32,000 nt of DNA from Microcystis aeruginosa NIES-843 (GTDB lineage Bacteria; Cyanobacteriota; Cyanobacteriia; Cyanobacteriales; Microcystaceae): assembly GCF_000010625.1 (NCBI RefSeq), contig NC_010296.1, forward strand, positions 600,001-632,000. Reading direction: 5' to 3'. How positions within the stretch are numbered: the stretch's first letter is position 1; each line of letters opens with the position of its first letter. The position numbers were made by a program, and so were the translations under genes. This document shows positions 5,148 through 27,655 of the stretch, piece by piece. Under the pieces are notes generated by a model. That model made no database searches and was not told the origin of the DNA. It was given only the letters and a program-made list of their open reading frames with translations.

Positions 5148-6551
5148 TTAACCATCGGCAACGTAGGGATTGACCATCTTAGCGGGGTCAACAATGCGAT
5201 CAAAATCCGCTTCCTTGATGTATCCCAGTTGCAAGGCTGCCACTTTCAGGGTTAAATCCTTTTCTAGGGCATAATGAGCGACGTAGGCAGCCTTTTGGTA
5301 GCCAATCACGGGACTTAAGGCAGTCACCAGCATCAAGGATTGATTTAAAAAAGTCTCAATTTGTTTTTGATTAGCAGTCATCCCCTTAACCAAAAACTGA
5401 CAGAAATTAGCGCAACCATCAGTGAGCAAACGGATAGACTGCATGAGATTATGAATCAACAGCGGTTTATAGACATTCATTTCCAGATGTCCTCCGGCGC
5501 CTCCCATCGTCACCGCTAAATCATTAGCCATCACCTGCAATGCTATCATCGATAAAGCTTCGCATTGGGTGGGATTAACTTTCCCCGGCATAATTGAAGA
5601 ACCCGGTTCGTTTTCCGGCAGCTGTAATTCTCCTAATCCACAACGGGGACCACAGCTAAGTAAACGGATATCATTAGCAATTTTATACAGGGAACTAGCG
5701 ATAGTTTTCAATCCCCCGCTCAAGAAAACTAGAGCATCGTGGGAACCTTGCACGGTAAACTTATTAGGGGCGGTAATAAAAGGTAATTTGGTCAGATTAG
5801 CGATTTCGGCAGCCACATCTCGATCAAAATCTGGGGGAGCATTAATTCCCGTACCGACGGCAGTTCCTCCCAAGGATAAACGATAGACTTTTTCTAGACA
5901 TTTTTCTAGCCAATCGCTGCCATCATCCAATAAACCCACATAACCGGAGAATTCTTGTCCGAGGGTTAAAGGGGTGGCATCCTGTAGGTGAGTGCGACCA
6001 ATTTTAACTATATTTGCCCATAATTGCGCCTTTTCATCGAGACTATTCCGTAATAGTTGCAGACTGGGAATTAATTTTTCCTTGACTGCCAAGGCAACGG
6101 CAATATACATGGCCGAGGGAAAGGAATCATTAGTCGATTGGGACATATTAACATGATCGTTGGGATCCACGGGAGTTTTGCTACCCAGAGGATTCCCCGT
6201 CAGTTGACTACAACGATTGGAGATGACTTCGTTGATGTTCATGTTAAACTGGGTGCCACTTCCCGTCATCCAAACGTAGAGGGGAAAGTTATCTGCGTGT
6301 TGTCCGGCTAAAATTTCATCGCAGACTTGACAGATAAGGTTTTTTCTCTCCTGACTGAGACGATTTTTTTGCTGATTGACAATCGCACAGGCTTTTTTGA
6401 GAATGGCATAGGACCCGATCATCTCCCGGGGCATGAGATTATCACCGATACTAAAGTATTGTAGGGATCTTTGGGTCTGCGCTCCCCAAAGTTTATCGGC
6501 AGGGACGGGAATTTCTCCCATGCTGTCTTTCTCGATGCGAAATTCTGTCAT
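5148..6551 (-). CDS. fumC: Class II fumarate hydratase
   Basis: The N-terminus [27 protein letters not shown] and the signature [16 protein letters not shown] match FumC rather than the AspA variant. Confidence 0.9.
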
Positions 6552-8882: not shown

Positions 8883-8943
8883 CTAGGGTTTGCGGCAAAA
8901 AGTTTCTCCTGGGGGGAGGGTGTGGGGTGTAGGGTGTAGGGTT
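8883..8943 (+). repeat. Dispersed ~60-bp repeat, copy 2
   Basis: CTAGGGTTTGCGGCAAAAAGTTTCTCCTGGGGGGAGGGTGTGGGGTGTAGGGTGTAGGGTT. Confidence 0.8.
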
Positions 8944-8973
8944 ATAACCAAGCATCACCTATATAGCACAAAT

Positions 8974-9381: not shown

Positions 9382-9574
9382 TTTTCCCCTCATCTTTGTC
9401 ATACTCCGCGTGAGTCAAAATGTACTTGATGTAAATTATTTGATCTTTGTAAACGATATCTACTGGCTCCGGTCGTGCCGGCAAGAAATAACCCACCGTC
9501 TGACCCTGGCAAGTGACGGCGATGGGAGTAGTAGAACTCAAATATTTGGCGAGATGATCCTGGAATTCTCCCAT
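9359..9574 (-). pseudogene. Chimeric ORF: Phd/YefM-like antitoxin N-terminus (44 aa) fused to the last ~27 codons of a HigB-type toxin
   Basis: MGEFQDHLAKYLSSTTPIAVTCQGQTVGYFLPARPEP is a near-identical copy of the ORF at 11921-12175. The tail VYKDQIIYIKYILTHAEYDK is the conserved HigB C-terminus. The ORF sits directly upstream of, and overlaps, higA. Confidence 0.65.
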
Positions 9575-9650
9575 TCCGATTTTTTCTAGCAGAGACTATT
9601 GCTTTTCCCGCTTGTGTACTGTTGTGTAGATAATTTTAGCAGAAAAATCT
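9464..9650 (-). repeat. 187-bp duplication, copy A (promoter/5' UTR plus first ~45 codons of the Phd-like antitoxin)
   Basis: Hand alignment to 12047-12233 gives 5 mismatches in 187 bp. Confidence 0.9.
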
Positions 9651-10418: not shown

Positions 10419-10645
10419 AAAATTATCGGAGTCGCTACCAGTTAGTTCTATCATAGGTGAAATAGATGGCTCTTCCAGTTTTTGTGTGGAAGGAAGAAGA
10501 ATAGGGATAATTTGGGTGCATCTCAATTTGGTCGAAATATCTATAGGACATTTTGGGCGCACACAGTTCGATAAACTCACTGACCACAGTGCGGCCCTAC
10601 CATTGGCGTAATAATATTATTGTAGGGGCGAATTGCCTTCGCCCT

Positions 10646-10697
10646 CAGGGTTTGCGGCAAAAAGTTTTTTGTGGGGGCGGGGTGTGGGGTAGGGTTG
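10646..10697 (+). repeat. Dispersed ~60-bp repeat, copy 3
   Basis: CAGGGTTTGCGGCAAAAAGTTTTTTGTGGGGGCGGGGTGTGGGGTAGGGTTG. Confidence 0.8.
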
Positions 10698-11137: not shown

Positions 11138-11910
11138 TCACTCACCGAAATACAGGTGAACCAGATTGCTCGTCCAGGTTGCCACCCCCGTGCCGAAAAA
11201 ATCCGCGTCTTCCGTCCAGATCGGGCATTCCAGCAATAAAGCCAGCGCCACGACTGGCCAATCGTCCACATCCCGCGCGGCGATGCGTTTTCTAGCCTCC
11301 CCCTCGTAAGAAGCGTACAGGCTGTTATCCACGATCCGCACCCAACCGGTCAAACCTTCCAAGACTGCCATCGCGTCCTCGCTCCCTAGGTCGCGTTTCT
11401 CGAAAAGAATCGGTAAATATCGCCTTGCGTCGGCGTAACAGCGATCGGTCGTGAAAAAATCTACCGTGGGAGCGAACCGAGCGATCATCGGAAATTTTGG
11501 GTCTGAAACCCCGCCGTTCTAGGTTGGCTTTACGTTAGAATTAAAAGGCCAGTCTCGAAAACCAAGTGGACGGCGCAGCACCTTGAAAACTCGGCTTAGG
11601 GGGTTCCGACCAGAAAAGCTTGGCCGGGTAAAAAGTCGCGCGCAACAAGTACAAGAAGCTATAGGCGGTCAACGTACCGTGGGACACACGGAATCGGGCT
11701 TCTGAAATGGGGCGAAAGTCTGTGGACTCTGTGTAAGACAGTACATGGTTTTTTAACTGTGGTATGCGACGGTGGTGGAAGCAGAAACTTAAATCGTGAG
11801 GTTTAGGAATCGCCGCACTTTTAGGGCGGCGAGGATGTCAACTCCCGTACCTTTTTCCCCAACACGGCACGGATGAGAATATTGGCATCCAGAACGATTC
11901 TTTTCGTCAT
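11138..11910 (-). pseudogene. PIN-domain (VapC-like) toxin gene split by a 353-bp insertion
   Basis: The ATG at 11910 gives MTKRIVLDANILIRAVLGKKVREL, then runs into TAA at 11823-11821. The 116-aa ORF 11488-11138 (IARFAPTVDFFTTD...DVDDWPVVALALLLECPIWTEDADFF) lies in another frame. Deleting 11486-11838 rejoins them into a 139-codon PIN ORF. Confidence 0.75.
11486..11838. mobile_element. 353-bp non-coding, hairpin-rich insertion of unknown class (possible IS200/IS605-derived PATE or orphan guide-RNA-like element, or an intron-like RNA)
   Basis: The ORF track has no ORF of 60 aa or more here. There are no terminal inverted repeats, and TCA sits at both junctions on the + strand. Hairpins: TCGCCGC-N9-GCGGCGA (11810-11832), 6 nt from one end; CCGTG-ggaca-CACGG (11677-11691); AGTC-tgtg-GACT. 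Several GAAA/GAAAA loops occur on the + strand. Confidence 0.5.
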
Positions 11911-11920
11911 GGCAGAAAGC

Positions 11921-12175
11921 CTAACGCTCGCCTTCGCGGAGTTGACGGAATTCGCGAACGAGCGCATCTTCAGAAAGTCCCTGTTCCCGTAAAAGCGCAT
12001 CCAACCTCTCGGCGGCGCGTTTTAACCCATCGATCTCCGCTTCCGATGGCTCCGGTCGTGCCGGTAAGAAATAACCCACCGTCTGACCCTGGCAAGTGAC
12101 GGCGATGGGAGTAGTAGAACTCAAATATTTGGCGAGATGATCCCGGAATTCTCCCATTCCGATTTTTTCTAGCAT
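11921..12175 (-). CDS. Phd/YefM-like antitoxin (intact), upstream partner of the split PIN gene
   Basis: The N-terminus GEFRDHLAKYLSSTTPIAVTCQGQTVGYFLP fits the Phd/YefM fold pattern, and the C-terminus is a charged helix. Its stop lies 10 nt before the PIN ATG. Confidence 0.7.
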   Translation of the reverse strand: MLEKIGMGEFRDHLAKYLSSTTPIAVTCQGQTVGYFLPARPEPSEAEIDGLKRAAERLDALLREQGLSEDALVREFRQLREGER

Positions 12176-12233
12176 AGACTATTGCTTTTCCCGCTTGTGT
12201 ACCGTTGTGTACATAATTTTAGCAGAAAAATCT
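12047..12233 (-). repeat. 187-bp duplication, copy B (native context)
   Basis: See 9464-9650. Confidence 0.9.
12196..12212 (-). promoter_or_regulatory. Direct repeat TGTGTAC-N3-TGTGTAC in the antitoxin 5' region (putative operator)
   Basis: It lies about 20-40 nt upstream of the Phd-like start and next to an A/T-rich -10-like TAAAAT on the coding strand. Copy A (about 9613-9629) conserves it with 2 changes. Confidence 0.35.
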
Positions 12234-19846: not shown

Positions 19847-20536
19847 ATGTGGAAATTTTTACGAGTCGATATTACTGATATTAATCCTTCTGTTCCCAGA
19901 GAAACCTTCTCCGAAACTGAATTGGAGAATTTAGCCAATCTTATTATTGAAATGGGTGGACTTATTCGCCCTGCTATTCTCAAAAAAGCTGATAATAAAA
20001 AAGTTGATGAACGTTATAATCTTATCAGTGGAGATTTAGAATATTATGCTTCTGTTATCGCCAATCAGAAAGTTCCTGACATCGAGATGATTAACGCTTT
20101 TGTGGTTGATAAAGAAGCGGAGAATATCGCTTTACAGCAAATACAGTTATTATCTCCTTCTCCTGGGTTAATTACCACGCCTGAAAAAACAGATAATCCT
20201 CTAGAATTGAGGGTGAGTAATCTTGAAAAACGATTAGAAACCCAGTTACAAGCAATCCGAGAGGAGTACCAAAAAGAAATCAAAAGACTGGAAGAAAAAA
20301 TTATTATTCTTCCTCCTCCTCCTCCTGCTTCTAAGTCGATTTTAGAGCTTTTGAATACCTGTGATGCTAATCAACTTAAAAAAGCGGGAATTCCACCTGC
20401 ATCTGTTAATGACTTTCTGAAAAAACGTTCAGAAAAGCCCTTTGATTCTTTGGAAGATGTCCTAAATCGCCCGGTGTCAGGAGTTAAAGAGAAAAGATTA
20501 ATTAAGCTTGTCGATTATTTGCTGACTTCTAACTGA
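19847..20536 (+). CDS. ParB-N-terminal-domain-like protein with a degenerate arginine patch, coiled coil, poly-Pro linker and a C-terminal helix-hairpin-helix
   Basis: LRVDITDINPSVPRETFSETELENLANLIIEMGGLIRPAIL...YNLISGDLEYYAS aligns to ParB box I/II, with GDLEYYA in place of GERRxRA. It is followed by PPPPP and then LELLNTCDANQLKKAGIPPASVNDFL...FDSLEDVLNRPVSGVKEKRL (HhH-like). The ATG abuts the parA stop (TAAATG). Confidence 0.6.
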   Translation: MWKFLRVDITDINPSVPRETFSETELENLANLIIEMGGLIRPAILKKADNKKVDERYNLISGDLEYYASVIANQKVPDIEMINAFVVDKEAENIALQQIQLLSPSPGLITTPEKTDNPLELRVSNLEKRLETQLQAIREEYQKEIKRLEEKIIILPPPPPASKSILELLNTCDANQLKKAGIPPASVNDFLKKRSEKPFDSLEDVLNRPVSGVKEKRLIKLVDYLLTSN

Positions 20537-20543
20537 TTTTTTA

Positions 20544-20571
20544 GGGTGTGTTGAGCTACTTTAACACACCC
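20544..20571 (+). terminator. 9-bp stem hairpin just after the parB-like stop (GGGTGTGTT-N10-AACACACCC); duplicated at 21612-21639
   Basis: Perfect 9-bp stem with no trailing T-run. It is conserved in both tandem units. Confidence 0.4.
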
Positions 20572-20590
20572 TACCGATGGATGTTATAAT
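20561..20590 (+). promoter_or_regulatory. Sigma70-like promoter candidate for Uma2 copy 1 (TTAACA-N18-TATAAT); copy 2 equivalent at 21629-21658
   Basis: The -35 TTAACA (20561-20566) overlaps the hairpin 3' arm, and the -10 TATAAT is at 20585-20590. The same arrangement is conserved in the second unit. Confidence 0.4.
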
Positions 20591-20643
20591 AATGGAAGAT
20601 CAGGAGAAATTGCTGATCCGATAGCGGGCAAAGATTAACTAAG

Positions 20644-20789
20644 TAGGTAGGTGTTAAAAATTGTCAGACACCCCCCTTATCAAGGGGGGCAGGGGGGATC
20701 CCCCCGCCTATCGGCACCCCCCTTAATAAGGGGGGCAGGGGGGATCAAGGGCAAAATCTATCTTCTATTTAACTAGAAACACTTACCTA
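20644..20789. mobile_element. 146-bp MITE with 12-bp TIRs (TAGGTAGGTGTT / AACACTTACCTA) containing two ~33-bp CCCCCCTT-N3-AAGGGGGG hairpin units
   Basis: It is present in the leader of Uma2 copy 1. It is absent from the otherwise colinear leader of copy 2 (21700-21712), which acts as an empty site. Confidence 0.7.
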
Positions 20790-20814
20790 GAAGACGGGTG
20801 AAAAGAGAAAACTT

Positions 20815-21513
20815 ATGACAACTACCCCAGTAATAGCTGCTTCTTTAACAATTCCTCCCCTAGAAAACGGCGATAAATTAACTCGATGGGAATTTGAACG
20901 ACGTTATCAAGGGATGCCCCATCTCAAAAAAGCGGAATTAATTGAAGGAATTGTTTATATGGCATCTCCCCTCAGATTTGAAAGTCACGCCGAGCCTCAT
21001 GCTAATATTGTCGGATGGTTAGCTCTCTATAAAGCGGCGACTCCAGGTGTTAGATTGGGTGATAATGCCACCGTGAGATTAGATATTGATAACGAACCCC
21101 AACCGGATGCCCTATTAAGAATTGACAAGGGAGGACAATCAACAATTAGTCAAGATGATTATGTAGAAGGTGCGCCGGAATTAATTGTCGAAATTGCCGC
21201 TTCTAGTGCTTCCTACGATGTTCATCAAAAATTAAATGTTTACCGTCGCAATCAAGTCCAAGAATATCTAGTCTGGCGGTTTTATGAACAAGAAATTGAT
21301 TGGTTTCGACTACAGGCAGGAGAATATATTAAACTAGAACCCGATAGTGATGGCATAATGCGCTCCCAAATCTTCCCCGGTTTATGGCTAGATAAAAACG
21401 CTTTATTAATGGGCGACTTAGGAAAAGTTTTAGTGATTTTACAGCGAGGGTTAGAGACACCAGAACATCAAGATTTTGTTAATAAATTAACTAGCGATCG
21501 CTCTCAAGTTTAA
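20815..21513 (+). CDS. Uma2-family (DUF820) PD-(D/E)xK endonuclease, copy 1
   Basis: AELIEGIVYMASP, the PQPDALL (D) and PELIVEIAASS (E) motifs, then HQKLNVYRRNQVQEYLVW (K...Y..G/Q.EY.W): the Uma2 layout. Confidence 0.8.
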   Translation: MTTTPVIAASLTIPPLENGDKLTRWEFERRYQGMPHLKKAELIEGIVYMASPLRFESHAEPHANIVGWLALYKAATPGVRLGDNATVRLDIDNEPQPDALLRIDKGGQSTISQDDYVEGAPELIVEIAASSASYDVHQKLNVYRRNQVQEYLVWRFYEQEIDWFRLQAGEYIKLEPDSDGIMRSQIFPGLWLDKNALLMGDLGKVLVILQRGLETPEHQDFVNKLTSDRSQV

Positions 21514-21550: not shown

Positions 21551-21604
21551 ATGGGAGAAAAAACTTTGCTCAAATTAATGGATTATTTATTGACTTCTAA
21601 CTGA
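21551..21604 (+). pseudogene. Relic 3' end of a second parB-like gene (MGEKTLLKLMDYLLTSN*)
   Basis: It aligns with the last codons of 19847-20536 (EKRLIKLVDYLLTSN*) at lower identity. It is followed by a near-identical copy of the 130-bp spacer. Confidence 0.6.
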
Positions 21605-21730
21605 TTTTTGTGGGTGTGTTGAGCTACTTTAACACACCCTACCGATGGTTGTTATAATAATGGAAGATCAGGAGAAATTGCTGATCCGATAGCGGGCAAA
21701 GATTAACTAGAGGGTGAAAAGAGAAAACTT

Positions 21731-22423
21731 ATGACAACTACCCCAGTAATAGCTGCTTCTTTAACAATTCCTCCCCTAGAAAACGGCGATAAATTAACTC
21801 GATGGGAATTTGAACGACGTTATCAAGGGATGCCCCATCTCAAAAAAGCGGAATTAATTGAAGGAATTGTTTATATGGCATCTCCCTTGAGAATTACCCA
21901 ACATGGTGAACCCCACGCGCATATTATGTTATGGTTGGGTTTTTATAAAGCTTTTACCCCCTATCTGCAATTAGGGGATAATTGTACTGTGAGATTAGAT
22001 ATTGATAACGAACCCCAACCGGATGCCCTATTAAGAATTGACAAGGGAGGACAATCGACAATTAGTCAAGATGATTATGTAGAAGGCGCGCCGGAATTAA
22101 TTGTCGAAATTGCCGCTTCTAGTGCTTCCTACGATGTTCATCAAAAATTAAATGTTTACCGTCGCAATCAAGTCCAAGAATATCTAGTCTGGCGGTTTTA
22201 TGAACAAGAAATTGATTGGTTTCGGCTACAGGCAGGAGAATATATTAAACTAGAACCCGATAGTGATGGCATAATGCGCTCCCAAATCTTCCCCGGTTTA
22301 TGGCTAGATAAAAACGCTTTATTAACGGGGGACTTAGGAAAAGTTTTAGTGATTTTGCAGCGGGGGTTAGAAACAGCAGAACATCGAGATTTTGTCAATC
22401 AATTAACTGCCAATCACAGCTAG
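21731..22423 (+). CDS. Uma2-family (DUF820) PD-(D/E)xK endonuclease, copy 2
   Basis: Same motifs as copy 1. The first 52 aa and residues ~87-200 are identical or nearly so, and residues ~53-86 are replaced. Confidence 0.8.
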   Translation: MTTTPVIAASLTIPPLENGDKLTRWEFERRYQGMPHLKKAELIEGIVYMASPLRITQHGEPHAHIMLWLGFYKAFTPYLQLGDNCTVRLDIDNEPQPDALLRIDKGGQSTISQDDYVEGAPELIVEIAASSASYDVHQKLNVYRRNQVQEYLVWRFYEQEIDWFRLQAGEYIKLEPDSDGIMRSQIFPGLWLDKNALLTGDLGKVLVILQRGLETAEHRDFVNQLTANHS

Positions 22424-24236: not shown

Positions 24237-26900
24237 CTACTTTTGACCGGCTTTAATCTGGTTCCAAACATCCTCTAAACTTAGATATAACACAGGCACA
24301 ACAATTAAACTCAACAGGGAAGAAGTGACTAAACCTCCCACAATCACCATCGCCATGGGTTGCCGCAATTCCGCACCAGTACCCAATCCCAAAGCGATCG
24401 GAATCATGCCTAAAATTGTCGAACAAGTGGTCATTAAAATCGGTCTTAACCTAATCATTCCCGTTTCTAAAACCGCTTCCTCCCGACTCCAACCCTGTTG
24501 ACGCAATTGGTTAGTATAATCCAGCAATAACACAGCGTTTTTATCCAGTAATCCCAAGAGGAAGATAAACCCGATCAGAGAAATCATACTAAACTCACTA
24601 CCCGTTACCAATAACCCTAACATTGCCCCCACAATCGCTAAAGGTAAACATAAAGCGATGACGATAGTTTCTAACAGTCTTCTGAATAATAACCATAAAA
24701 CTCCTAACATTAAAATTGTCGCTAGGATTAAAGTACGACCAAAACTGCCCAAAACATCGCTACTTTGAGAAGAAGTACCCCAACGCTGTAAAGTTATCCC
24801 TTCCGGTAAAGGAATCCCTTCAATTTTAATCGCCGCATCTTCTAAGCCTAAATCCGGACTGAGATTAGCACTGAGAAAAATCGCCTGTTGACCATTTAAA
24901 CGCTCGATCGCCAAAAAATCCCCCCGCTCATTTAATCTAGATGATAGGGAAATATCCTTTAAACCGGCGATTTTAGCGGCCTCAACCCGCAATTTCTCGG
25001 CACTATCGCGCAATAGCTTGAAATCATCGCTTTTAATCGCAATTTGGATCGGCTTTTCCGCTTCCGTCTGCACAAAAGGAATGTCCTCGACACTGACATT
25101 CACCCCTCTAATTGTCGGTAAAATTTGCCGAATCCGTTGCTGCACCGCACTGGTGTGAGATCTACGATCGCTCTTCAGTTTAACGTGAATTTTGCCCCGA
25201 TTCGGCTCACCGCGTAAACCGGCGATCATAAAAGTCGATTCCACTTCCCCATCCTGCAAAATCGGCGCTTCTAATTTGCTGCCATCGCGGATAGTGCGAC
25301 GCAGGAGAAAACTTTCGGGAGAACTAGCTAACTGGGAAATCCAAGCGAAACTATCAGTAGAACTCTTAGCGGTCGGTTTATTAGGGCTAATTTGCGTTAT
25401 TTTCGGCAAAGGAGAAGTATAAACCAGATTAAACTCGCCGCGATCGAGTCGGGGAATAAATCCCCTAGAAATAAAAGGAATCAAGGCAATACCCGCAAAA
25501 AAGGTAATTAGGGCAATAGCAATGACCAGCAAACGATGACGCAATGACCAGTTTAAGAGCCGTCGATAGGCGTTTTCAATCGGTCGCTTTTGTTTCGTCA
25601 TTTTTGCCCGTGACTGCGGTTTCAGCCAATATACTGCCAAAACTGGCGATAAAGTTCTGGCGATCAACAGAGAAAAAATCACCGCAGCCGAGACAGTTAA
25701 ACCGAAGGGTTGGAAAAACTGCCCCACCGCACCCCCCATAAAAGCCACGGGTATAAACACGGCAACAATGGTTAAAGTGGAAGCAGTGACAGCTAATCCG
25801 ATCTCCCTTGTCCCCTTGAGTGCCGCATTTTTCGGGGTTTCCCCCGCGTCGATTAAACGGGAAATATTCTCCACATCAACGATCGCATCATCCACGACAA
25901 TGCCGATTACCAAAGCGAGAGCCAGCAGCGTCAGGGTTTCCAGATTAAACCCATAGATGGCCATGATAATGAAAGTCCCCAAAAGAGATAGGGGGATAAC
26001 CAGAGCAGAAATGATTGTAGCAGCGAAACTGCCTAAAAATATCAAGATCACCAGCACCGACAGCAAAACTGCCAAAAGTAAATCATCGATCGTGCCTTGT
26101 AGGGCAGCGCGAATATATTCCGCTTGAGTTTCAGCTAAAATTATCTTGACATCGGGCAGTTTTTGTGCTATGTCTTTAACCAGTTTTTCTGCGACCGCGG
26201 CCAGATCGAGACTATTGGCAGCACCTTGTTTGATTACCTGCACAGCGATCGCTTCTTGACCGTTAAAGCGCACCAGCGTGGGCAATGGTCGGGTTAAGCT
26301 TTTATGGGGATTATCTTCTCTAACTGTACCCTGACCGAGTAAATTAACTTTAGCCGTACCAGGAAGAGCTTTTAAGGGCGGAATTAAATTATCTTGGGCG
26401 ATTTGGCTTAATTCTTCTAGGGTTTTCTGCTCACTCACCAGCGCATAGGTGACTGTTGCCGACTCATTTAAATCAACGGGGATAACTTCTGTGGTAGCTT
26501 GAGGGGGTAAAGGGATTTGCGAGATAGCCTGTTTAACTGCTGCGGTGGCTTTGTCTAAATTTGTGCCAATTTTAAAGAAAACGCTGATTACTGACTGTCC
26601 GGGGGCAGTAGTCGAGGACACATCCCGACAACCGGGGAGAGAGAAAAGGGGATTTTCTAGGGGTTTAGTTAATTGCTTTTCCGTGGTGATAGCAGTAGCT
26701 AAATCCGCTTGAGCGTTAATTATTACGACTGGAAAGCTTATATCGGGGAAAAGAGCGTATTTTAGGGAACTAAAAGCCAAAATTCCCGCCATGGCCACCG
26801 CTAACCAGAAAGCAATGGTTAACCTCGGGGCATTAATCGCTATTCGAGAGATATTCAGACGTTCTCGCCATGATTCTTTCATCTTTTGATCATCTCTCAT
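24237..26900 (-). CDS. RND-superfamily efflux permease (AcrB-like, short 887-aa form)
   Basis: 12-TM RND topology with two periplasmic loops. VDDAIVDVENI and the C-terminal IPIALGLGTGAELRQPMAMVIVGGLVTSSLLSLIVVP are typical of AcrB/HAE-type pumps. Confidence 0.8.
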   Translation of the reverse strand: MRDDQKMKESWRERLNISRIAINAPRLTIAFWLAVAMAGILAFSSLKYALFPDISFPVVIINAQADLATAITTEKQLTKPLENPLFSLPGCRDVSSTTAPGQSVISVFFKIGTNLDKATAAVKQAISQIPLPPQATTEVIPVDLNESATVTYALVSEQKTLEELSQIAQDNLIPPLKALPGTAKVNLLGQGTVREDNPHKSLTRPLPTLVRFNGQEAIAVQVIKQGAANSLDLAAVAEKLVKDIAQKLPDVKIILAETQAEYIRAALQGTIDDLLLAVLLSVLVILIFLGSFAATIISALVIPLSLLGTFIIMAIYGFNLETLTLLALALVIGIVVDDAIVDVENISRLIDAGETPKNAALKGTREIGLAVTASTLTIVAVFIPVAFMGGAVGQFFQPFGLTVSAAVIFSLLIARTLSPVLAVYWLKPQSRAKMTKQKRPIENAYRRLLNWSLRHRLLVIAIALITFFAGIALIPFISRGFIPRLDRGEFNLVYTSPLPKITQISPNKPTAKSSTDSFAWISQLASSPESFLLRRTIRDGSKLEAPILQDGEVESTFMIAGLRGEPNRGKIHVKLKSDRRSHTSAVQQRIRQILPTIRGVNVSVEDIPFVQTEAEKPIQIAIKSDDFKLLRDSAEKLRVEAAKIAGLKDISLSSRLNERGDFLAIERLNGQQAIFLSANLSPDLGLEDAAIKIEGIPLPEGITLQRWGTSSQSSDVLGSFGRTLILATILMLGVLWLLFRRLLETIVIALCLPLAIVGAMLGLLVTGSEFSMISLIGFIFLLGLLDKNAVLLLDYTNQLRQQGWSREEAVLETGMIRLRPILMTTCSTILGMIPIALGLGTGAELRQPMAMVIVGGLVTSSLLSLIVVPVLYLSLEDVWNQIKAGQK

Positions 26901-26902
26901 AA

Positions 26903-27023
26903 GTGGGGTGTGGGGAGTGGGAAGTGGGGAGTGGGGTGTAGGGTGTGGGGTGATGGGGAAGTGGGGAGATGGGGTGTAGGGTGTGGGGTGTAGGGTTTTA
27001 GGGTTTTAGGGTTTTAGGGTTTT
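26903..27023 (+). repeat. G-rich degenerate heptamer array (GGGGTGT/GGGGAGT variants) ending in (AGGGTTTT)x4
   Basis: It abuts the RND start codon. Exact 8-mer units lie at 26992, 27000, 27008 and 27016. Confidence 0.9.
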
Positions 27024-27124: not shown

Positions 27125-27603
27125 CTAACCCCATGGTAGATGTTGGATTTTTGCAGGAGTTCTATTTTCTGACAAAGATAAGCAAAAATTATTTATTGAC
27201 TGCAAAAACTTGAGAATATTTAAATTAACATTCCGCAATATTTATAAATTCTTAAGAATTAATTGAGAAAGATTTTTATTTAACAACGATGTTATCATAG
27301 TTACAGCGATTTTACTGAATTTCATAATGGGTTATTCTGTGCTTTTTTGACCAGCAATGGTTGAAACCCTTGCCACACCTAGAAGGGTATCCTAATTGAA
27401 GCGGGTAAATCAGTCAATTTCACCCCTAACGATGATCTTTTTTTTGTGTAGTTTTATTGCAAAAAAAAAGTTTTTTTGACAAAAAGCACAAAGTATGATA
27501 AGCCCAACCTATTTCTGGCTGCGAGTAATTATTGCAGAGTGGGGGAGTGGGGAAGTGGGGAGAATAAATAAAAGCAATCTCCTGTCTCGGAGTCTCCTGA
27601 CTT

Positions 27604-27655
27604 GAAAGAGGGTGTGGGGTGTGGGGTGTGGGGTGTGGGGAAGAAAACCTCTTTC
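27604..27655. repeat. 8-bp stem (GAAAGAGG / CCTCTTTC) enclosing (GTGTGGG)x4
   Basis: The arms are 27604-27611 and 27648-27655, and the heptamers span 27612-27639. It lies about 50 nt downstream of the trpD stop. Confidence 0.8.

Follow-up and report, generated by a model that had tools for sequence, protein, structure and literature searches.

A gene-less IS200/IS605-type element with a putative omega-RNA scaffold interrupts a PIN toxin gene of Microcystis aeruginosa

IS608 of Helicobacter pylori is the paradigm of 'peel and paste', the single-strand transposition carried out by a Y1 TnpA, and this transposition is reportedly the subject of work by He et al. from 2015. The homing activity of TnpB and the layout of its omega-RNA have been described (PMC10055086), and protein-less IS200/IS605 derivatives that keep the omega-RNA have also been described already. 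Here we analyzed a 353-nt non-coding insert that interrupts a PIN toxin gene in a 32,000-nt stretch of DNA from Microcystis aeruginosa NIES-843 (NC_010296.1, positions 600,001 to 632,000; the whole stretch is referred to as the window, and positions are those of the window). Comparison with an empty allele, with 24 further copies and with related tnpB-bearing elements indicates that the insert is very probably a protein-less, PATE-like (palindrome-associated transposable element) member of the IS200/IS605 family, made up of two transposon ends, a likely promoter in its left end (LE) and an RNA of ~295 nt that carries the omega-RNA scaffold of TnpB.

The interrupted gene lies on the minus strand (11138-11910) and codes for a PIN_2 toxin (PF10130). 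Without the insert, the fused product is 139 aa long and matches PIN_2 in Pfam over residues 6-137 (E = 3.4e-41), while the homologues, more than 4,500 in number, include close ones of 139-141 aa that run unbroken across the junction. An earlier reading made from the sequence alone (hereafter the sequence-only reading) had proposed that a 353-nt non-coding insert divides a single PIN gene, and the contiguity of the two halves in intact homologues confirms it. One such homologue, P0001 (98% identical), is encoded on L014, a metagenome contig that lacks the insert and matches the window DNA at 98-99% identity on either side of the insertion point. In this empty allele the site reads GCGATCAT followed directly by CTCCCG on the + strand of the window, with nothing duplicated, nothing lost and no scar. 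Since the empty site fixes both boundaries, the insert spans 11489-11841 (353 nt; a 1-nt C ambiguity permits 11490-11842) and not 11486-11838 as first proposed, a shift of 3 nt. The junction in the intact protein is VRE-M-IARF, not REL-IARF. With Met at this junction, the minus-strand ATG at 11488-11486 must be codon 24 of the PIN gene itself (native Met24), contained in ATGA, the reverse complement of the TCAT target, rather than a start codon supplied by the end of the insert. Likewise, the junction ambiguity formerly described as TCA at both ends is merely a resemblance of the target TCAT to the last bases of the element, TCAA. The insertion falls inside codon 24 and cuts off the first catalytic Asp, which lies within the fragment of codons 1-23, from the remaining PIN domain, just as the sequence-only reading had stated. 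At the PIN site, alleles with and without the element both exist in Microcystis populations. The identical 116-aa C-terminal product is called on 14 public contigs; nine of the ten contigs listed among these terminate inside the insert, which is expected assembly behavior because the insert is a repeat. The features of the locus, including open reading frames (ORFs), are as follows.

11489-11841, plus strand: the whole non-autonomous IS200/IS605-family element, 353 nt, top strand tnpB-sense (from the empty-site comparison and further copies)
11485-11488, plus strand: TCAT, the target or transposon-adjacent motif (TAM); host gene sequence, not element, and present in the empty L014
11489-11533, plus strand: LE, carrying the invariant motif GGGTCTGAAACCCC; its subterminal hairpin is at 11511-11527 (from homology to tnpB elements)
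11536-11541, plus strand: candidate -10 box TAGAAT with a predicted start near 11548 (prediction only)
11544-11679, plus strand: 5' RNA domain, specific to the mini-element, with P1 and its CGAAAACCAAG loop, a CUUG/CAAG stem and a small variable hairpin
11674-11841, plus strand: 3' RNA domain, homologue of the omega-RNA (reRNA) scaffold, with the hairpin 11677-11691 and the right-end hairpin (from covariance model R1)
11810-11832, plus strand: subterminal hairpin of the right end (RE; helix 11), followed by GGATGTCAA, which closes the element
11842-11861, plus strand: CTCCCGTACCTTTTTCCCCA, the predicted guide if the omega-RNA is read through into the flank (by analogy with the TnpB/omega-RNA arrangement of Meers et al., PMC10055086)
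11842-11910, minus strand: N-terminal fragment of the PIN_2 gene, codons 1-23, MTKRIVLDANILIRAVLGKKVRE, with the first catalytic Asp (ORF list, alignment to intact homologues)
11138-11488, minus strand: C-terminal fragment of the PIN_2 gene, native Met24 to stop, 116 codons (ORF list, Pfam)
11921-12175, minus strand: intact 84-aa ORF upstream of the PIN gene, in the antitoxin position of the operon (ORF list)

The insert has no terminal inverted repeats (TIR), none having been found by search or by direct reading, in agreement with the sequence-only reading, and no target-site duplication (TSD). It is seamlessly inserted 3' of a tetranucleotide on the LE side, has hairpins near both ends and lacks coding capacity; its ends are homologous to those of protein-coding members of the IS200/IS605 family, and it occurs at multiple loci. 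TCAT stands directly 5' of LE in 25 of 25 mini-elements and in all three full-length tnpB elements examined, their flanks being otherwise unrelated, and all 25 copies terminate in GTCAA. The motif GAGGATGTCAA is nearly invariant across all copies and the full-length tnpB elements. Compensatory changes affect four of the nine pairs of the RE hairpin and one pair of the LE hairpin (helix 1), the latter in L021. The RE hairpin had been placed correctly at 11810-11832, but it sits 9 nt rather than 6 nt from the true end. We assign the insert to the IS200/IS605 family because it combines the absence of TIR and TSD with a fixed LE-side tetranucleotide, hairpins near both ends and a TCAA right end, and we consider it a PATE-like non-autonomous element because there is no gene inside: its longest internal ORF is 48 aa (the sequence-only reading had found none of 60 aa or more), and tblastn revealed no TnpB coding remnants. 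A PATE or an omega/HEARO module had been suggested; the IS200/IS605 ends, the TCAT target and the omega-RNA-type 3' domain described below uphold that suggestion, except that the module is not of the HEARO/IscB type.

Two candidates were rejected in the course of this assignment. An antisense ORF (MYCLTQSPQTF...), which in six diverged lineages runs without a stop as far as the LE end, was not retained as a gene: the frame of homologous nucleotides shifts from lineage to lineage, the central part of the 'protein' is unconserved, and the ORF is 25 aa long in the Microcystis copies, including that of the window. Mobilization by an IS607-type serine recombinase was considered because a Microcystis plasmid carries an IS607-type tnpA-tnpB pair; however, the junctions share no crossover dinucleotide, and TCAT/TCAA together with the hairpins fit Y1 TnpA.

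A scan of one genome per species with a pattern consisting of the LE core, a gap of 267-297 nt and the RE core returned 22 elements, and a metagenome scan added two, giving 24 further copies of 346-369 nt. Thirteen of them are in Microcystis, at different loci and 98-100% identical to the window copy, with five copies each in M. aeruginosa LEGE 91341 and M. ichthyoblabe FBCC-A1114 (98-100%). The other 11, from other cyanobacteria or metagenomes, are 67-79% identical; their hosts are Oscillatoriales, Symploca, Oscillatoria, Microcoleus, Spirulina subsalsa and cyanobacterial metagenome-assembled genomes. Diverged copies in other cyanobacterial orders retain the length, the ends and the RNA helices, and most other copies lie outside genes, being either intergenic or upstream of genes. 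The sequence-only reading had suggested looking for further copies and for empty and filled sites, and both were found, the copies sharing a common architecture, which places the element well outside chance. No second copy was detected elsewhere in the window by repeat comparison or with the covariance models R1 and R2, and scans of viral contigs gave 0 matches to the mini-element motifs. As judged from the sequences of its copies, the element has multiplied recently in Microcystis.

When compared by blastn with plasmids and phages, the insert was matched at its two ends only. Over its last 65 nt, the insert shares 87-89% identity with the 3' end of tnpB genes, variously annotated as 'IS891/IS1136/IS1341 transposase', 'IS605 OrfB' or 'RNA-guided endonuclease TnpB', and the first ~45 nt (LE) are 81-88% identical to the sequence immediately upstream of tnpB in three loci, L011, L012 and L013. 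These tnpB relatives reside in plasmids of Calothrix, Stanieria, Trichormus, Nostoc and Microcystis and in the Microcystis phages MaMV-DH01, DL01 and DL02, and thus related ends flanking TnpB genes, which the sequence-only reading had suggested looking for, do exist. In the three full-length elements (L011-L013), the RE match covers 22 nt at the end of tnpB and a further 43 nt, in the tnpB sense, and the phage protein (L013) contains the Pfam domains HTH_OrfB_IS605, OrfB_IS605 and Cas12f1-like_TNB.

The folding energy of the insert is -115 kcal/mol on the + strand compared to -84.9 kcal/mol on the minus strand (z = -1.5 versus -0.3); such a single-sequence z-score is weak alone, and the comparative data carry the weight. 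In an alignment of 14 distinct copies (A3), the RNAalifold consensus comprises 73 pairs, 24 of which exhibit compensatory double changes, which answers the question of covariation among copies raised by the sequence-only reading. A long-range LE-RE pairing contained in this consensus was dropped as uninformative because all of its pairs are invariant, and pairs were counted on the 68 pairs that omit this helix. In the predicted structure, 96.7% of the cells pair, 24 pairs have double changes and the covariation score is 0.334, compared to 32-43%, 2-6 pairs and ~0.05, respectively, in controls in which the 3' partners were slid by 1-3 columns; none of 500 shuffles attained the observed value. 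More than 10 conserved G.U pairs would become C.A mismatches on the opposite strand, thereby identifying the + strand (sense for tnpB, antisense for the toxin) as the folded one. The hairpin at 11677-11691, pointed out from the sequence alone, is real and covaries across relatives.

The folded RNA comprises two domains. Of the whole element, the 3' domain is conserved best. Model R1, built from the 3' 168 nt of the mini-elements only, matches L013 at 2407-2564 through its positions 1-167 (91 bits, E = 2e-24), as well as L012 (87 bits) and L011 (64 bits). The matched stretch corresponds to the last ~115 nt of tnpB plus RE, on the same strand, which is where the omega-RNA scaffolds of TnpB lie. 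Shared between R1 and the tnpB 3' ends are a CCGNN-GGGCU-NNCGG hairpin, a GUCUG/CAGA helix, an AAAUC-GUGA-GGUUU hairpin, the right-end hairpin and the GAGGAUGUCAA tail. In the 5' domain, 11 of the 20 modelled pairs covary. Its CUUG/CAAG stem encloses two covarying helices, and the P1 hairpin, overlooked by the aligner, forms in every lineage with wholly different arms and a conserved loop. Model R2 (11544-11679) has a single match in the window, at 129 bits, and none at E≤10 in the tnpB elements L011-L013 or in L039, a related but different element. The 5' domain may be either specific to the mini-element family or derived from an unsampled parent. Searches of both strands with cmscan, at the gathering threshold and at E≤10, revealed no intron, HEARO or other Rfam family, a match to HYMAI (E = 6) being at noise level, nor did the omega regions of the full-length relatives match any Rfam family at threshold. 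The RNA had not been recognized as a named family from its sequence either, and this RNA clade is absent from Rfam.

A TAnnnT hexamer lies between the LE hairpin and P1, 6-13 nt past the former, in all 11 lineages, preceded by a TGn extension (extended -10) in eight of the 11, while the surrounding sequence has diverged. Its position corresponds to the TGTTAAATAT box of the full-length tnpB elements, suggesting a candidate promoter that would drive transcription of the RNA.

Based on these observations and on known mechanisms, we propose the following cycle. The + strand of the element would be cut out and re-inserted as single-stranded DNA by a Y1 TnpA made elsewhere in the genome; Microcystis PCC 7806 is reported to carry 14-16 IS200/IS605 tnpA copies (PMC11448079). 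Transcription from the LE promoter through RE into the flank would produce an omega-RNA that takes the ~16-20 nt of flank next to the element as its guide, CTCCCGTACCTTTTTC... A TnpB from a full-length relative would load this RNA and cleave TCAT+CTCCCGTACC..., that is, the restored toxin allele, and recombinational repair would then reinstate the element. The guide segment 11842-11861 recurs unchanged after TCAT in the empty L014, and the L014 allele is a perfect match to the predicted target (TCAT plus flank). For the host, the net effect is a disabled toxin gene next to an intact upstream 84-aa gene, and precise excision could in principle restore the toxin gene.

Several observations weigh against reading the insert as a TnpA-mobilized element with a TnpB omega-RNA scaffold. 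The parent tnpB element was not found, the closest ones being only 81-89% identical at the ends, and the central omega-RNA hairpin of these elements is unlike that of the mini-element; compatibility of the mini-element RNA with the TnpB of such relatives can only be presumed. A motif scan of the loci examined found no Y1 tnpA, with matching ends or otherwise, and the mobilizing enzyme is for this reason assumed. In the window copy, the -10 box has neither a TG extension nor a -35 box and was not called by the consensus scan, which leaves the promoter a prediction. Nothing corresponding to the 130-nt 5' domain is present in the tnpB elements, and the domain would go unexplained if the RNA were simply an omega-RNA remnant, and the absence of any Rfam family is relieved only by a sub-threshold, noise-level match to the archaeal RNA family HgcC (12.5 bits, E = 5.4, 11741-11854 on the + strand). 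Finally, we infer transcription, TnpB binding and transposition of this element from known mechanisms. As a separate observation, the HgcC alignment sets the RE hairpin and GAGGAUGUCAA tail against the 3' hairpin of HgcC plus GAGGAGGUCAG; HgcC may represent the omega-RNA 3' end of archaeal IS200/IS605 elements, as a distant relative.

The unexplained 5' domain is also what lends some substance to another account, in which the 5' domain or the whole ~295-nt RNA is a mobile cargo with a regulatory, antisense or scaffold function, the ends serving for mobility only and the omega-like part being a leftover. The 5' domain covaries across orders and is absent from the tnpB relatives, the element has its own promoter motif, and read-through transcripts would be antisense to neighbors, most copies facing away from the adjacent ORF. 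However, it is the 3' domain that is most conserved and that has kept all the helices it has in common with the tnpB omega-RNA region, an argument for continuing TnpB-related selection on it, and the 5' domain matches no known RNA family in Rfam; we therefore hold a cargo RNA to be unlikely. A further variant, to which we give modest though somewhat greater credence without expecting it to be correct, would be a free-living guide-RNA gene turned transposon, endowed with a promoter, a 5' domain and an omega scaffold, and parasitizing the TnpA of others for movement and their TnpB for homing. Processing, stability, competition for TnpB and host-directed regulation are candidates for an additional role of the 5' domain.

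Two other explanations fare poorly. An inert deletion remnant of a tnpB element, persisting since the toxin gene is dispensable, would have the LE and RE of tnpB elements, no ORF and no TnpB coding remnant detectable by tblastn, all of which is observed. Yet the 13 nearly identical Microcystis copies occupy different loci, and the length and architecture are kept in at least six other cyanobacterial lineages (67-79% identity) together with the 24 covarying pairs. Because a chance deletion would not hold a size of 346-369 nt or accumulate compensatory changes, we regard this explanation as very improbable. The clean interruption of the ORF and the strong structure had also suggested a self-splicing or otherwise RNA-excisable element, such as a group I/II intron or an IStron-like element, that would make toxin production conditional. 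This idea is now very unlikely, given that neither strand has an intron or ribozyme match at E≤10, that the conserved G.U pairs put the fold on the strand antisense to the toxin mRNA whereas the minus strand (z = -0.3) folds no better than shuffled sequence, that most other copies are intergenic or upstream of genes, and that the ends and target are those of IS200/IS605. We thus retain the interpretation of the insert as a protein-less IS200/IS605 element carrying an omega-RNA scaffold.

The choice of target has a consequence for neighboring genes: because TCAT is the complement of ATGA, every insertion adjoins an ATG on the opposite strand. At no fewer than five of 24 independent sites (L021, L024, L028, L034, L038), this ATG opens a long ORF, and at two of them Pfam supports it as the true start, with an Epimerase domain from residue 4 (L028) and a RimP_N domain from residue 13 (L034). 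ORFs of at least 100 aa start from the TAM ATG in 8 of 25 copies, compared to a background of 12.6% (binomial p~0.009, or ~0.02 with one shared site merged). On a Rippkaea plasmid (L039 2501-2505), the related but different element mentioned above, of ~345 nt, adjoins the annotated start codon of a pentapeptide-repeat gene. The first ~14 nt of several non-Microcystis LE termini (L018, L019, L025, L028, L033-L035) read (C)CCAGGAG(N)TTTCG in reverse complement, directly before the TAM ATG, thereby placing a Shine-Dalgarno-like AGGAG/GGAGG 6-7 nt upstream of it; the LE variants of Microcystis, L020, L032, L037 and L038 (AAATTT / TTTTTT) do not contain such a motif. The element may hence substitute its own ribosome-binding site for that of a gene in front of which it inserts, and be tolerated in that position.

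Other observations concern the toxin gene and its surroundings. In L003 and L005, two of the nine contigs that terminate inside the insert and representatives of other Microcystis populations, the mini-element in the same PIN gene is itself broken by another insertion sequence at a point equivalent to window ~11673/11674 (L005 1-576, L003 1-124), which is the exact boundary of the 5' and 3' RNA domains; the interrupting sequence carries a partial 184-aa transposase-like ORF that ends in ...YQKRFDIEEMFRDFKSGGYSLE... and has no Pfam match. A second PIN gene is split by an independent copy of the family in Symploca sp. SIO2E9 (L032, element on the reverse strand at 5720-6074). The rejoined ORF matches PF01850 (E = 3.8e-12), and the element is again antisense, shortly past the first catalytic Asp. 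These two hits probably reflect the tolerated loss of an abundant, dispensable class of genes, not targeting. The 84-aa gene upstream of the PIN gene also adjoins the intact PIN gene in L014; since it has no Pfam match, the label 'antitoxin' is based on position only. A 187-nt direct repeat (97% identity) links 9464-9650 with 12047-12233. The latter copy spans the start of the 84-aa gene (~43 codons) together with its upstream region; the former, 2.6 kb away, adjoins another small toxin-antitoxin-like gene pair (HigB-like in L001-L003); the repeat looks like promoter/N-terminus sharing or recombination between toxin-antitoxin loci.

A Microcystis NIES-2481 plasmid (L042, NZ_CP025929.1 125864-127660) hosts a related tnpB element whose LE follows TTAC, not TCAT, and in which ~400 nt of foreign sequence lie between tnpB and the 3' region. 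A solitary RE-like perfect palindrome, TTGACATCCTCACCG...CGGTGAGGATGTCAA, is found on the NIES-2481 plasmid as well (L040 36420-36460). One replicon thus hosts related ends with different targets. Elsewhere in the window, arrays of the G-rich heptamers GGGGTGT / GGGGAGT (and complement) flank several genes (1195-1272, 8884-8948, 10644-10690, 26899-27020 and 27539-27640), and longer repeat units of 44-63 nt (AGGGTTTGCGGCAAAAAGTTT...) occur in both orientations; this dispersed family of short repeats is unrelated to the insert. A tandem duplication (20488-21095 versus 21556-22011, 86-90% identity) gave rise to two paralogous ORFs of ~230 aa (20815-21513 and 21731-22423) with their upstream regions.

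Taken together, these results explain the split toxin gene without a new mechanism and add a well-supported, covariation-backed RNA family that was missing from Rfam. They reveal that guide-RNA-only IS200/IS605 derivatives have recently been active in bloom-forming Microcystis and occur widely among filamentous cyanobacteria, account for a source of contig breaks and 'fragmentary' genes in Microcystis assemblies, and supply a candidate TCAT-TAM system. For the biology of TnpB, a natural omega-RNA freed of coding constraint could reveal which RNA features TnpB needs. A literature search, whose incomplete coverage makes it weak evidence, retrieved no paper on this cyanobacterial family or on a TCAT TAM for TnpB; the 5' domain restricted to the family, the promoter motif belonging to the element itself and the consequences of the TCAT (= ATGA) target look new.

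Among known systems, IS608 resembles the mini-element in inserting strand-specifically 3' of a tetranucleotide, TTAC in its case, and in having a TCAA right end, subterminal hairpins, no TIR or TSD, and seamless excision. Unlike IS608, which encodes tnpA and tnpB, the mini-element has neither gene, and its target is TCAT. The HEARO RNA, or omega-RNA of IscB (RF02033), is likewise a transposon-borne guide-RNA scaffold beside an IS200/IS605 end, but cmscan gave no match to it here, the relatives of the mini-element encode TnpB rather than IscB, and HEARO lies upstream of iscB, on the opposite side of the gene. Closer still in sequence are the IS1341-type (tnpB-only) elements, exemplified by AP018208.1 88747-90060 (Calothrix plasmid), NZ_CP025929.1 ~79180-80515 (Microcystis NIES-2481 p1) and the 'transposase' UWV19685.1 of phage MaMV-DH01. 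They have in common with the mini-element the TCAT target, the LE motif TTTGGGTCTGAAACCCCG with its hairpin, the RE organization AAATCGTGAGGTTT..hairpin..GAGGATGTCAA, the orientation and the helices of the last ~160 nt. In contrast, they are ~1.3 kb long and encode a TnpB of 370-399 aa where the mini-element has a non-coding 5' RNA domain, and the central hairpin of their omega-like domain is different. Finally, the PATE-like omega-RNA elements of Geobacillus stearothermophilus (Meers et al. 2023, PMC10055086) resemble the mini-element in having no gene, LE and RE shared with tnpB relatives, hairpins near both ends, a 4-nt target at LE, no duplication, an omega-RNA set against RE and a TnpB acting in trans. 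The mini-element, known from its sequence alone, differs from them in its cyanobacterial host, its sequence family and its TCAT target, as well as in its conserved 5' RNA domain of ~130 nt and its own -10 motif.

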